A DNA stretch of 64,000 nt, taken from positions 1-64,000 of IMG/VR virus record IMGVR_UViG_3300036797_000015; one strand, written 5' to 3'. The DNA is from a virus. Its lineage: Duplodnaviria > Caudoviricetes. Shown piece by piece: positions 1-11,521 of this stretch. Position 1 is the first letter of the stretch. Every line of letters begins with the position of its first letter. The notes under the pieces were generated by a model. That model worked only from the letters and a program-made list of their open reading frames with translations, made no database searches and was not told the DNA's origin. Both the position numbers and the translations under genes were made by a program.

Positions 1-208
1 TGTGCCAAACAGTTACATCACCCTGGCGGGGGTAGTGCTTGACTACCACCATTGGTAGCTGGGTCTTACCCGATTGCTCTACCAGGGCCTTAGCCTCTGG
101 GTCGGCGTCGATGTCGATGTCTGTATAGGCTACACCACGTTCATCGAGCTTCTGCTTGGTATACTTACATTGAACGCAGTCTTCCCTGCCGTAAACCGTA
201 ACGCCCAC
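1..208 (-). CDS. nrdH: NrdH-like glutaredoxin (runs off the window edge)
   Basis: Manual translation from GTG at 208 with AGGAG SD: MGVTVYGREDCVQCKYTKQKLDERGVAYTDIDIDADPEAK...QLPMVVV...WH; CVQC redox motif typical of NrdH. Confidence 0.9.
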   Translation of the reverse strand, partial: MGVTVYGREDCVQCKYTKQKLDERGVAYTDIDIDADPEAKALVEQSGKTQLPMVVVKHYPRQGDVTVWH

Positions 209-311: not shown

Positions 312-451
312 AGTTCTCCGGATGGCCGGTATACTGTACCCAGGGACCAGGGCTTTTGGACAGCAGCCCGGCCCAAGGCCCTGACCAGGCGTTATCAGTC
401 CGGTCTAGACTTCTGCCCTGGTCTGGCGTACTTTTGACCTTGGGGAGAACT
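312..451. promoter_or_regulatory. Divergent promoter pair
   Basis: + strand TAGACT-17nt-TACTTT (406-434); - strand TACAGT -10 box (338-333); both carry GCCCTGGTC in the spacer (345-353 inverted, 415-423), with a variant GCCCTGACC at 378-386. Confidence 0.55.
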
Positions 452-820
452 ATGCGTAATCCCTGGTAGAACGACCGTAGACCGGAATGTCGGGTTAGAT
501 GCTTAGGCGAGACCCACTAGACCGGCCAATGCGTGACGTTAAGATCGGCAAAGTCGAGAGGAACCACCCGGCTATGATCGGGAGTAGGCCGCGACCTAGC
601 GGAAAGCCCTGGGCGGGCAACAGATCTGGCGCTAACGGAGTTGCTTGAGAACTAAACAGAGAAATCCTTAGTAGCGGAGGTGCGAACCTCCGTGGTTCCT
701 ACACATCCGCTACATGGTTGTTGTTGGGGCAACGTAAGTTGCGTGCGAGTCTGGGGCTTCGGTCCCAGGCTGGTGCGGGGCGAAGCGTTATTTGCCCTGT
801 TCCCAACACCCTGAGGAGAA
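441..820 (+). ncRNA. Long structured 5' leader / putative ncRNA
   Basis: No credible + strand ORF. Nested helices GGAACCAC(559-566)/GTGGTTCC(692-699), CGGAGGT-GCGA-ACCTCCG, GCAAC-GTAA-GTTGC, GTCTGGGGC-TTCG-GTCCCAGGC; GNRA and UUCG tetraloops. Confidence 0.6.
640..659 (+). promoter_or_regulatory. rrn boxA-like antitermination element
   Basis: GTTGCTTGAGAACTAAACAG closely resembles the actinobacterial rRNA-leader boxA region (GTTGTTTGAGAACTCAA) as recalled. Confidence 0.5.
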
Positions 821-2747: not shown

Positions 2748-3935
2748 GTGACAAAACCCCAAGATAGTATCATGAGCAAAATCATGAAGCTGCTGGAGAG
2801 GGCCAATCACCCGAGTACGCCTGAGGCTGAAGCAAAAGCATGTGAAGAAAAAGCAGACGCTTTGATGGCGCAGCACCAGATAGATCGAATGGATCTGAAG
2901 CCAGAAGAGAAGGCCAAGATTATCCAGGACGCCTGGAGCATTCACTTTGGTGTTTCGGGTAAGGCCCACGAATTTGGTAGCGCCATCGAGTCGCTCATGC
3001 GTGCTGTCCTGTCGCATTGTAAGATCAAGATGGACCCTAGGTACAGCTACGGCACTAACGAGAATGGGGACAAGGACTATGGTGTCCGAGTCTTCAAACT
3101 CGTTGGCTTCCCTGAAGATATTGCCTATGCTGAGCGCATCTGGTTCCGAGTCTTCAAAGAGTTTGTGTTTAACGTCAACCCAGGTTGGCGCAAGGACGCC
3201 TCTATAGAGGACAACGCGTATGACTTGGTCAAAGCCAGTATCGACTGGCAGACGATGGTCCTGATGGCGAATAATGCCGGAGATGACCGCATACCCGTGT
3301 CGGAGTTGGAAGTGTTACAGCCGTATGATAAACGGCAGATACCAGTTAAGGGTAATCGTCCGCTGATCAAGGGCATCAATATGTTGCGTGATGCTTACCG
3401 TGCGGAATGCGAACGTCGCGGTGAAGCCTATGAGTACAATAAAGGCGACAAGACCCGTGCGTCGTACAGAAGCAGTTTCGCTATCTCGTTTGCCGGCACG
3501 ATTAAGCGGCGACTGGATGAAATGCGCCAGAAAGCAGAAGAGACTGTCTCTGATCGGGACAAGTACGCGTTGGCACTAGTCGATACAGAAGAGCAGGTGG
3601 AGCGTGAGTTCTACCGGCTGTTCCCCGAGTTTGACCCTGAAATCCGCAAGCGCCAAAGGGATGCTGCGGCCGCTGAGGCTGTGGCTGACTTCCTGGCAAT
3701 GTCGGAAGATGAGCAAGCTTACGTGATCGACTATGTGTCCAAGGAGGAAGCAGAGAATGAGAAACGTTGGCAACGGGCAGCCGGTCGGGCTAGGCGCAAT
3801 TACGGGACGATACGTGGTCGAGACTATGGCGACGTTCAGGACCGGGCCTGGAAGGCTGGCCACCAAGCTGCGTCCTCAGTTAATCTGAGGGATGATGCGG
3901 AGGTTAAGCGTGAGACCCGTAAGGGTATCCGATGA
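2748..3935 (+). CDS. DUF2786-domain protein
   Basis: N-terminal KIMKLLERANHPSTPEAEAKACEEKADALMAQHQID; GTG 2748 is better spaced from the SD than ATG 2742. Confidence 0.75.
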   Translation: MTKPQDSIMSKIMKLLERANHPSTPEAEAKACEEKADALMAQHQIDRMDLKPEEKAKIIQDAWSIHFGVSGKAHEFGSAIESLMRAVLSHCKIKMDPRYSYGTNENGDKDYGVRVFKLVGFPEDIAYAERIWFRVFKEFVFNVNPGWRKDASIEDNAYDLVKASIDWQTMVLMANNAGDDRIPVSELEVLQPYDKRQIPVKGNRPLIKGINMLRDAYRAECERRGEAYEYNKGDKTRASYRSSFAISFAGTIKRRLDEMRQKAEETVSDRDKYALALVDTEEQVEREFYRLFPEFDPEIRKRQRDAAAAEAVADFLAMSEDEQAYVIDYVSKEEAENEKRWQRAAGRARRNYGTIRGRDYGDVQDRAWKAGHQAASSVNLRDDAEVKRETRKGIR

Positions 3936-4682: not shown

Positions 4683-4780
4683 AGCCTAACGGAGCATTCC
4701 GCGGTGCGTTCTTTGGGGCTTTGGTTGGTATCTTTATATTCTGGGTACCTGCCATAGTCCTGATGCTTACCCACCACTAG
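4679..4780 (+). CDS. Small membrane peptide (33 aa)
   Basis: ATGA overlap; MKPNGAFRGAFFGALVGIFIFWVPAIVLMLTHH, single TM segment. Confidence 0.6.
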   Translation: MKPNGAFRGAFFGALVGIFIFWVPAIVLMLTHH

Positions 4781-4866
4781 GGGTGAATATGCTAGGTGCC
4801 CTGGGGCTTAACGTCCCAGGGTATCTAGGGTATCAAACCCGATACCTACCCAACAACCAAGAGGAA
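4778..4866 (+). repeat. Class II intergenic element, copy 2
   Basis: AGGGGTG-ATGCTAGGTGC-[CCTGGGGC/GTCCCAGG]-GTATCT, GGTATC/GATACC hairpin, CCCAACAACCAAGAGG. Confidence 0.9.
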
Positions 4867-4872
4867 AAGAAA

Positions 4873-5172
4873 ATGTCTGGAATCTACGCAAAGATCAAGA
4901 GGCACAAGGGCAATAAGGTCTGGTACAGTCTTGAGTTCAAGATCATAGCTATCGGCGAGGAATCGCGGTGGCCGTGCTTGGATATGGCCAGATTCAACCT
5001 GCCGACTGAAGCCCGTGCTTGCGCTGAAGAGCGCGGCTGGCACGTGGTGGAGACCTGGCGGGAAGCCTATGATCACGCCCAGATTGGTCCGTGGGATGGT
5101 GTGTACCGTGCCTATGAGCCACCAAGGGTGGTCGGTCCTGACTATGTAGAGGAACGGGCCAATGTCCGCTGA
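4873..5172 (+). CDS. Hypothetical early protein (alternative in-frame start at 4789)
   Basis: ATG after repeat SD. Confidence 0.75.
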   Translation: MSGIYAKIKRHKGNKVWYSLEFKIIAIGEESRWPCLDMARFNLPTEARACAEERGWHVVETWREAYDHAQIGPWDGVYRAYEPPRVVGPDYVEERANVR

Positions 5173-5509
5173 GATCGTGACCGCAGGCTTCTGCCCGCAG
5201 TACTTCAGCCAGTTCCGCGTTTTGAGCAATCAAAATGATACATATTACTCAGTAACGCTAAATGGCACTGGGCCAGCATTCTGTACGTGTAAAGCGTATG
5301 AGTTTGCTAAAATGTATGACAAGACCTGTAAGCATATTAAACGGGTCTGGGAACATGGCTGCTTATATAACCCGCAATGGAAGGATGCGGGGCCAAATGA
5401 TCTGGATAAAGTTGGCGTTGAGATTGTCGCTACCGATACCAGAAACAGCTACCCTAAGAATTGCCCCGGTTGTCATGAGGAGATGATAGCCGTGAAGATA
5501 GCAGTATAG
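5162..5509 (+). CDS. SWIM-type zinc-finger protein
   Basis: CTCKAY...TCKHI (CxC..CxH) plus a C-terminal CPGC. Confidence 0.75.
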   Translation: MSAEIVTAGFCPQYFSQFRVLSNQNDTYYSVTLNGTGPAFCTCKAYEFAKMYDKTCKHIKRVWEHGCLYNPQWKDAGPNDLDKVGVEIVATDTRNSYPKNCPGCHEEMIAVKIAV

Positions 5510-5595
5510 GAGACTATGCCAGGTGCCCTGAAGCCAACCACTTCAGGGTATCTGGGGTATCGTTCCTAGATGCCTACCCAACAACCAAGAAGGAA
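5507..5595 (+). repeat. Class II intergenic element, copy 3
   Basis: AGGAG-ATGCCAGGTGC-[CCTGAAG/CTTCAGG]-GTATCT, GGTATC/GATGCC hairpin, CCCAACAACCAAGAAGG. Confidence 0.9.
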
Positions 5596-5597
5596 TC

Positions 5598-6086
5598 ATG
5601 AGAACAAAAGCAAGGAAAGCATTTCTACACTCAGCGTTCACGACCGCGCTTGAAGGCGGAATTGGCTACTGGTCGGAGTGCGAGGAATATGTTTGGTCTA
5701 AGCCAAAAGCCGGGCCAACCAAAGAGCGCACTGAAGACCTGGATGGCTTTCATGCTTGGATAACAAACAACGAGAGTGACTGGGGTGTCGGTAAGGCGTA
5801 CCAACCAAATACAACGAGCAAGTACGCTGTAGATGGTTGGGTTGAGTTAGAGCCTGACGCCACTTTGGTCATTGACATTGACGTTGTCGAGCGTGGAGTC
5901 AATATGCTGGTTGATGCGGTAGTCGCCGCGACCAAGTCGGAAGACCCAGAAGCGCCATTTAACAACAAGTACCTCCGACAGTTCGTGGAGGCTTGGCTAA
6001 CTGATGGCGACGGTGGGGATTACGACGCTAATGGTGCCGACCTGGCTATCCAGCTGGGGCTGTTCGGTGAGGTCGTGTACGCATGA
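5598..6086 (+). CDS. Hypothetical early protein
   Basis: SD plus ATG; TTALEGGIGYWS segment; coupled to next gene. Confidence 0.8.
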   Translation: MRTKARKAFLHSAFTTALEGGIGYWSECEEYVWSKPKAGPTKERTEDLDGFHAWITNNESDWGVGKAYQPNTTSKYAVDGWVELEPDATLVIDIDVVERGVNMLVDAVVAATKSEDPEAPFNNKYLRQFVEAWLTDGDGGDYDANGADLAIQLGLFGEVVYA

Positions 6087-10296: not shown

Positions 10297-10470
10297 TGGT
10301 TGTTGGCCAGACCCCTGAACGCTCACGAGGCGTCCAGGGTGCTCTGGTGAGTAGCGCGGACGGTAGACCCATGGGAAGTGGGATCGTGTGCACCCGTTCG
10401 ACTCGGGCATTCCGCGCTACTCTCCAGGGTAACCCTCTTGGCCGAGGTTACCCCAGACAGAAAGACTGGG
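10297..10470 (+). ncRNA. Structured RNA with tRNA-like core (10349-10426)
   Basis: 12-bp stem GAGTAGCGCGGA/TCCGCGCTACTC followed by T-CCA; T-arm-like CCCG-TTCGACT-CGGG; flanking hairpins CCAGA..CCCTG/CAGGG..TCTGG and GGGTAAC/GTTACCC. Confidence 0.6.
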
Positions 10471-11367: not shown

Positions 11368-11521
11368 TAGGCCAACCTGGAATCCTCTCCAGGTTGTTGG
11401 GAAGTGGCGGCGTGCTAGGCGTTACAGTCTAGCACGTCGTCACGCAAATGATGCGGCCCATATAGAGTGGGCAAGTGCCTTGGCCGGCAATACACGAAAG
11501 GACCGAAGTGGCAAGAGCTAA
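11357..11521 (+). CDS. Small basic hypothetical protein
   Basis: Fills the gap between coupled genes. Confidence 0.5.
   Translation: MRINRPTWNPLQVVGKWRRARRYSLARRHANDAAHIEWASALAGNTRKDRSGKS

Follow-up and report, generated by a model that had tools for sequence, protein, structure and literature searches.

A candidate family of structured, cis-acting early leader RNAs in Onyinye-like actinophages

The stretch of DNA analysed here (hereafter the window) comprises bases 1–64,000 of an IMG/VR virus record of 73,825 bases. Close to its beginning, a gene-free gap of 600 nt (224–823) separates the minus-strand glutaredoxin gene (2–223; Pfam PF00462) from the first plus-strand gene, the first early gene (824–1132), which starts with GTG at 824 behind the Shine–Dalgarno (SD) sequence GAGGAG (813–818). 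An earlier note, made from the letters of this DNA, had proposed that the part of the gap from 441 on is a multi-domain structured RNA, either a cis-regulatory leader or a free phage ncRNA. The locus thus raises the question of whether a conserved RNA precedes the first early gene and, if so, what it may do there. We read the stretch as an uncatalogued family of structured cis-acting early leader RNA in Onyinye-like actinophages.

The locus, its relatives and its non-coding character

The source virus is a soil actinophage related to Mycobacterium phage Onyinye, with whose primase/polymerase its own counterpart has 44.7% identity. The ends of the record (window 2–127; genome 73700–73825) repeat ~126 bases, cutting the glutaredoxin gene. 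This overlap indicates that the assembly is circular or permuted, and the ‘linear’ record thus represents a circle that was opened within the glutaredoxin gene. The long ORFs of the window lie nearly all on the plus strand, and the next cassette starts at 1132, where the first early gene stops. The product of the first early gene gave no Pfam match, and no relatives of this protein were found in IMG/VR.

When the gap was compared by blastn with 50,697 phage records at default settings, no match was obtained. With a 131-nt query (700–830), the same kind of search of phage records matched only Onyinye, Leopard and Aikoy, each through 55 bases (query bases 16–70) situated just 5′ of the first gene. 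IMG/VR and metagenomes were scanned with a conserved 18-mer from this 55-base match and then with a looser pattern. These pattern scans yielded L003 (with the identical copies L005, L015 and L016), L031 (identical to L034) and the partial L020, the metagenome scan being the source of L020 and L031; L158 was recovered with a profile built on the DUF6011 protein, a conserved early protein. The six lineages compared below are the window, Onyinye, L003, L031, L158 and L020, of which five are full-length and L020 has lost its upstream end; L003 and L031 are close relatives. The literature on Onyinye gave nothing beyond its listing as a singleton. Closer relatives are known as proteins (P0002–P0005, with a DUF6011 protein 50–64% identical), and the other DUF6011 loci, L159–L196, are without the conserved 3′ module described below. 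The more distant L037, L038 and L039 (4500–8500) also possess the glutaredoxin gene and the last of the late genes; there, further minus-strand genes (an ORF of 724–901 aa) follow the glutaredoxin gene directly with no gap, so that these loci gave no leader.

All five full-length lineages carry, in this order, a minus-strand glutaredoxin gene, a gene-free gap of 555–815 nt and a first early gene. In Onyinye the gap is 555 nt long and is followed by gene 54, and Leopard and Aikoy are alike. The gene after the gap varies: it is an orphan in the window, a DUF6011 gene in L158, and a member of another family in Onyinye and L003. Since the first gene differs between lineages, a gene-specific control is unlikely. 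A genome end or cos site was considered and ruled out, as the Onyinye record has the gap in its interior.

Tblastx comparisons between the leaders gave similarity that is equal in all six frames, and the plus-strand ORFs differ in place and length. These two results mean that there is no conserved ORF, and they ruled out a conserved leader peptide as a candidate; a translated ORF covering the region is what the earlier note had named as counting against an RNA. The Aikoy record (L007) contains a 37-codon CDS at 1218–1331 inside the leader and has gene 54 annotated at 1500–2078. These gene calls cover the entire conserved RNA module, and Onyinye and Leopard start gene 54 114 nt later; the Aikoy calls over the leader are probably an over-annotation. 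As for known RNAs, Rfam 15 gave nothing at the gathering score in the 64-kb window, a single chance snoRNA match inside the first gene for 150–1300 at E ≤ 10, and none at E ≤ 1 for the loci of Leopard, L020, L031's virus, L003's virus and L158. This absence of an Rfam match in the window and its relatives agrees with the earlier note, which recognised no family.

On the plus strand, a promoter-like site at 406–434 consists of a −35-like TAGACT (406–411), a 17-nt spacer and a −10-like TACTTT (429–434), and it is the sole −35/16–18/TANNNT arrangement that pattern matching finds in the window gap. The corresponding sites of the relatives are TAGCGT-17-TATAGT in L003 and L031 and TTGCGA-16-TATATT in Onyinye, and in these three and the window the −10 box ends 315–389 nt upstream of the start codon, the range for the three relatives being 315–368 nt. 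The leader is thus predicted to be transcribed from near 441, and this promoter pattern agrees with the 5′ boundary at 441 drawn in the earlier note. A 5′-end hairpin (442–464, in which 442–446 pairs with 460–464) is present in every constrained fold of the window; by eye, a hairpin appears to follow the predicted −10 box closely in each lineage. Onyinye alone has another promoter-like site, immediately upstream of the invariant tract described below; as it is not conserved, it was set aside.

Two further elements were noticed in the upstream part of the gap. An inverted repeat, CTAGAC ... GTCTGG (405–426), covers the −35-like box and the spacer; it was flagged by a terminator scan and looks more like an operator site. 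In addition, the block 290–357, between the glutaredoxin gene and the leader promoter, shows strong conservation with L158 and partial conservation with L003 and L031 and, on its minus strand, contains the box TACAGT; this block probably serves as the promoter of the glutaredoxin gene or as an operator common to both divergent units.

The conserved 3′ module

The last ~110 nt before the first early gene (715–823, the 3′ module) are conserved in six of the six lineages. At their beginning lies an invariant, GU-rich tract, TGGTTGTTGTTGGG(G) (715–729, plus strand), of which 14 of 14 bases (715–728) are identical in the six lineages; no other invariant block in the gap is as long. The tract is the complement of a CA-rich start-associated motif (the CA motif), which reads CCCAACACCC at 802–811 on the same strand and CCAACAACC elsewhere. 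Helix P0, in which the invariant tract as the 5′ strand pairs with the CCAACA(A)CC motif adjoining the SD as the 3′ strand, encloses three hairpins. Its pairing of TGTTGGG (722–728) with CCCAACA (802–808) beside the first SD, which the earlier note had pointed out, has a probability of 0.99 in the ensemble. P1 (729–742) is a 5-bp hairpin with the loop GUAA (734–737). P2 (745–774) is formed by 748–757 and 762–771 with the loop UUCG (758–761) and has an outer extension (745–746/773–774). P3 (775–800) pairs 775–784 with 791–800 in the whole-leader fold, and its core is 778–782.

Sequence changes in and around these helices were scored on an alignment of the six lineages (A5). For P0, P1 and P2 together, 95.5% of the cells are paired, 12 of the 26 pairs carry double changes, and none of 500 shuffles was as good; in controls in which the partners were slid by 1–3 columns, 28–46% were paired, the structure having been derived from these same sequences. 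P1 is paired in 100% of the cells, and three of its five pairs are changed on both sides in L158: L158 has GCGUU/AACGC where the five other lineages have GCAAC/GUUGC. The same five carry a P1 loop of the GNRA type (GUAA, GAGA, GAAA), as compared with UGAA in L158. P2 comprises 13 pairs on the alignment, nine of them with both-side changes, and 92% of its cells are paired. P0 shows no covariation because both of its strands are almost invariant, and its 3′ strand is conserved for another reason because the motif precedes many genes. The sequence and register of P3 differ among the lineages, so that this hairpin was scored separately. A local hairpin at the corresponding place in every lineage, it reaches −8.2 to −11.7 kcal/mol in five of them, within the best 1–4% of shuffles, and −7.2 kcal/mol in Onyinye, within 13% of shuffles. 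Covariation across related phages, which the earlier note had proposed as a check, is thus found in the 3′ module of the six lineages, and the RNA structure that it placed beside the first SD is both conserved and covarying.

The 3′ module can also fold in another manner. Minimum free energy (MFE) folding gives the P0-closed junction of P1–P3 in four of the six lineages and a rod in L003 and L158. The rod, which RNAalifold also chooses, has the 5′ strand of P1 paired into P3. As the consensus structure it was rejected in favour of the junction, with 90.1% versus 95.5% of the cells paired, and at most of its pairs the P1-strand/P3 helix of the rod is interrupted in one or two of the six lineages. 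The two forms lie within 0–5 kcal/mol of each other in all six lineages; the module therefore folds as a rod of near-equal energy, and the junction model is not unique. In L158, where P1 is changed, the rival partner is changed too, and both pairings keep their complementarity. The rod is thus a possible second state of the 3′ module, and the junction and the rod possibly represent a conserved bistability.

Parts of the module recur farther downstream. The exact motif CCAACAACC is located 13–22 nt upstream of seven early-gene starts in the window, all on the plus strand and within the first 6.7 kb, and it precedes five to seven early genes each in Onyinye, L003, L031 and L158 with the same spacing of 13–22 nt. 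A covariance model built from the six-lineage alignment (R1) scores 95–121 bits on the leader module in every lineage and 16–46 bits on cassettes in the intergenic regions ahead of later early genes of the window, L003, L031 and Onyinye; the matched cassettes of the window are 1669–1821, 2629–2750, 4774–4875 and 5461–5602. What the cassettes have in common with the leader is P2 and its flanking sequence, together with the CA motif and the SD; P1 and the invariant tract with its pairing occur in the leader but not in the cassettes. Searches with these elements brought no further relatives: none were found with the exact pattern of the CA motif plus SD, the invariant-tract 15-mer gave at least 120 chance matches, and a gapped pattern gave no new relatives in IMG/VR and prokaryote genomes. 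Further plus-strand copies of a 9-mer complementary to the CA motif were observed at 10298–10306 and 11392–11400, both downstream of the seven motif-bearing genes; the former copy stands right after a stop codon and before a hairpin-rich stretch.

The lineage-specific 5′ part and the two folds of the window leader

The 5′ and central part of the leader (441–714, plus strand) is structured and lineage-specific, and it holds the pairings 477–490/703–713, 560–567/692–699 and 675–681/686–692. It can be aligned between lineages only for L003 with L031, at 72% identity. For this pair, the consensus fold is −73.2 kcal/mol as compared with −45.5 ± 4.5 for shuffled columns, although the resulting z of −6.2 is generous, as column shuffling ignores dinucleotides. 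Seven compensatory pairs were counted, a number reached in 3 of 200 shuffles, and the reverse complement of this upstream domain folds to −57 versus −73 kcal/mol for the plus strand. Between Onyinye and Leopard, two leader differences were found: one falls in a GNRA loop and the other turns an A–C into a G–C in a stem.

A string check located every motif that the earlier note had listed, that is, both strands of the helices and the loops, where it had put them on the plus strand: CGGAATGT at 483, ACATCCGCTAC at 703, GGAACCAC at 560, GTGGTTCC at 692, GTAGCGGA at 671 and TCCGCTAC at 706; CGGAGGT at 675, ACCTCCG at 686, TGTTGGG at 722 and CCCAACA at 802; and the tetraloops GCGA at 682, GTAA at 734 and TTCG at 758. 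From the ~380-nt multi-domain fold proposed there, the last ~110 nt are conserved across the lineages, and this covarying module is the part that exceeds chance, but the two long-range helices have no recognisable counterpart in any relative and express the thermodynamics of one sequence. Similarly, the three stable tetraloops are all present, but the GCGA hairpin (675–692) is specific to the window, with no visible counterpart in the relatives.

The plus strand of 441–830 folds to −150.6 kcal/mol, whereas dinucleotide shuffles give −136.0 ± 5.9 (z −2.5, 0 of 100 as good); the z of the minus strand is −1.3. Two folds 1.3 kcal/mol apart account for this region. The MFE fold (−150.6 kcal/mol) contains 671–682/701–713 and has an ensemble probability of ~0.18, and the alternative fold (−149.3 kcal/mol) combines 477–490/703–713, 560–567/692–699 and 675–681/686–692, with an ensemble probability of ~0.82. 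The hairpin of the former (671–713; 11 pairs, one mismatch) excludes the GCGA-capped hairpin of the latter. In L158, a counterpart of hairpin 671–713 with 13 bp occurs at the equivalent place in the MFE fold. Inspected by eye, two G–C pairs become G–U in the L158 helix, and the mismatch of the window is U–G there; the G–U pairs fit the plus strand only. The loops of hairpin 671–713 (688–693) and of its L158 counterpart (~3715–3722) show CCUCCG, holding the 16S anti-SD core CCUCC, and this loop might act as a decoy or provide another site for pairing with the SD.

A short element in this region, AAUCC(U/C), can pair with the SD. No other block immediately 5′ of the 3′ module is even semi-conserved; in the window, UCCUUA (665–670), which is part of it, can pair with 812–817 and thereby cover the SD. 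According to partition function calculations, the SD core pairs with AAUCC(U/C) with a probability of 0.81–0.99 in L158, Onyinye, L003 and L031, and with the upstream sequence shuffled, only 0–3 of 30 shuffles reach the observed value in these four relatives. The mean SD-pairing probability with shuffled upstream sequence is itself 0.30–0.70, as the G-rich SD easily finds partners. In the window, the probability of the pairing 665–670/812–817 is about 0.27, and 17 of 30 shuffles reach the observed value. The pair flanking the CC core is U–A in the window, U–G in three lineages and C–G in L158. These calculations lend moderate support to a sequestration of the SD in this phage group.

In the window, the SD pairing is present only in the MFE fold, together with hairpin 671–713, and it is possible that the two folds of this model correspond to a hidden and a free SD. 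The switch-like alternatives suggested in the earlier note are accordingly borne out as two near-isoenergetic folds, but in a changed form: the element with a counterpart in L158 is hairpin 671–713, and it is coupled to the 665–670/SD pairing. No conserved unpaired sensing pocket was identified, and no known riboswitch class matches.

A possible role and its alternatives

Our preferred reading, in which we place middling confidence, is that the leader acts in cis on the translation or processing of the first early cistron. A host-type promoter ending near 434 would produce the 5′ leader of the early operon. Pairing of 715–729 with 802–808, just upstream of the SD, would close the P1/P2/P3 junction, and AAUCC(U/C), at 665–670 in the window, would extend this clamp onto the SD, so that the ribosome site of the first gene may remain trapped at the base of a large structure until this opens. 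Opening might occur by a cut in P2, a relative of the hairpins that separate the later early genes, or by a refolding of the leader; the two near-equal folds of the window would then differ by whether the SD is paired. The 5′ 270 nt would be a lineage-specific domain that sets the balance of the folds and probably protects the 5′ end.

Such an arrangement has parallels among the coliphages. T7 R0.3, before gene 0.3, and the lambda N leader are RNase III-processed structured early leaders, and the lambda cIII mRNA takes two alternative structures; in all three, the folds limit the access of ribosomes, and processing or refolding raises translation. The leader described here resembles the coliphage early leaders in being a structured RNA between an early promoter and the first early gene. 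It differs from them in host and fold, with no sequence or Rfam relation, and, unlike them, its closing helix uses a motif common to other early genes.

The closest functional precedent within mycobacteriophages leads to a different reading. Transcription from the early promoter Pleft of L5, D29 and StarStuff yields a non-coding RNA of ~500 nt; ~90% of the transcripts terminate in the ncRNA and are processed to species of 100–400 nt (PMC5712189). This RNA is stable and the most abundant phage RNA, and its region is toxic to M. smegmatis, which the authors most simply attribute to the RNA (PMC5712189). By analogy, most transcripts from the present locus may end in or after the 3′ module to give an abundant, stable early ncRNA of ~380 nt that acts on the host, with P2/P3 as an attenuator or processing signal that only a minority of transcripts pass to reach the early genes. 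We regard this as unlikely, though it has the most in its favour after cis control. Like the Pleft RNA of Cluster A, the leader occupies hundreds of gene-free bases behind an early promoter, with a similar size, no conserved ORF and strong folding. The Pleft RNA, however, has demonstrated expression and is mostly terminated, whereas transcription of the present leader is predicted, and blastn of the phage records found no similarity to Cluster A phages; inspection of the sequence revealed no U-rich terminator tail after P2 or P3; and no SD-adjacent clamp is described for the Pleft RNA in that paper, whereas one is predicted here. A cis role is favoured by the fact that the best-conserved portion of the leader is joined physically to the SD region of the following gene.

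Somewhat less probable still is that the leader serves processing or stability alone, as the first of a series of punctuation hairpins cut by a double-strand-specific RNase, the folds doing no more than shielding the newly made ends, with no control of translation. The matches of the covariance model to the downstream cassettes through P2 and its flanks point in this direction. As substrates, P2 with its extension has 12–15 bp and the rod form, a long imperfect duplex, is longer, as compared with about two turns for a duplex of the RNase III type. A general punctuation role nevertheless leaves aside precisely what distinguishes the leader from the cassettes, namely the invariant tract, P1 and the SD-pairing motif.

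The complementarity of the invariant tract to the CA motifs raises a further idea, which we consider rather improbable: the leader may be the master of a phage-wide circuit in which the tract pairs in trans with the CA motifs of early messages. The c4 antisense RNA of P1/P7 is an RNA at the front of an operon with tracts complementary to downstream ribosome-site regions, and it acts in trans as a processed RNA of ~77 nt. In comparison with c4, the complementary tract of the leader is predicted to be occupied in cis, so that its action in trans is a possibility. If the idea were true, a leader freed from, or outnumbering, its cis partner would time or shut off early translation, and this would be a one-RNA, many-genes switch acting on a start-associated sequence, of which no example is known from any phage.

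Antitermination in cis, of the put type of HK022 or the boxA/nut type, by which polymerase would read through the early-gene hairpins, would suit a leader placed directly behind an early promoter in a genome with nearly all genes on one strand and hairpin cassettes between the early genes. We think it very unlikely, because no Rfam antitermination family matches and because the boxA-like tract at 640–659 is not conserved in any of the other five lineages; this boxA mimic was rejected on the alignment. Least probable of all is that the gap has no RNA function and holds promoters, operators and other DNA sites, its hairpins being incidental or protein-binding inverted repeats: for the inverted repeats beside the start-associated sequences of Cluster K, Pope et al. 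2011 (PMC3203893) preferred an interpretation as DNA-binding sites, and the inverted repeat at 405–426 overlaps the promoter-like site, but the compensatory changes, the many G–U pairs (A–C on the other strand), the better folding of the plus strand than of the minus strand, and the internal position of the gap in Onyinye, which is thus not a genome end, all speak against it.

The Cluster K phages also provide the nearest parallel to the CA motif. According to the report on them, their start-associated sequence (SAS) is a short asymmetric motif just upstream of many non-structural gene starts, often preceded by inverted repeats and conserved across the subgroups whatever gene follows, and the repeats beside it were judged not to pair as RNA (PMC3203893). 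The motif CCAACAACC is of this type: it is short, asymmetric and in one orientation, and it belongs to early genes and lies near their starts. The Cluster K consensus as given there, the 13-mer GGGATAGGAGCCC, contains the SD, whereas CCAACAACC differs from it and stands upstream of the SD; the relation is an analogy and not a membership. Two other differences concern the RNA: the hairpins here covary, whereas the Cluster K repeats did not support RNA pairing, and a complementary copy of the motif is present here in the leader of the operon, whereas none is described for Cluster K in the available text of that report (PMC3203893).

The Cluster K SAS has been without a known function since 2011, and the analogous motif of the present phages has a conserved complementary partner in the leader. 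Since this pair of motif and tract closes a covarying junction at the first ribosome site, it offers a testable hypothesis for such motifs, and the phage group includes a cultured member, Onyinye, which is grown on M. smegmatis, the usual host in the laboratory. With the leader, the small set of structured RNA families reported from actinophages becomes larger. The leader also suggests a wider habit, of which the abundant early leader RNAs of Cluster A may be one case.
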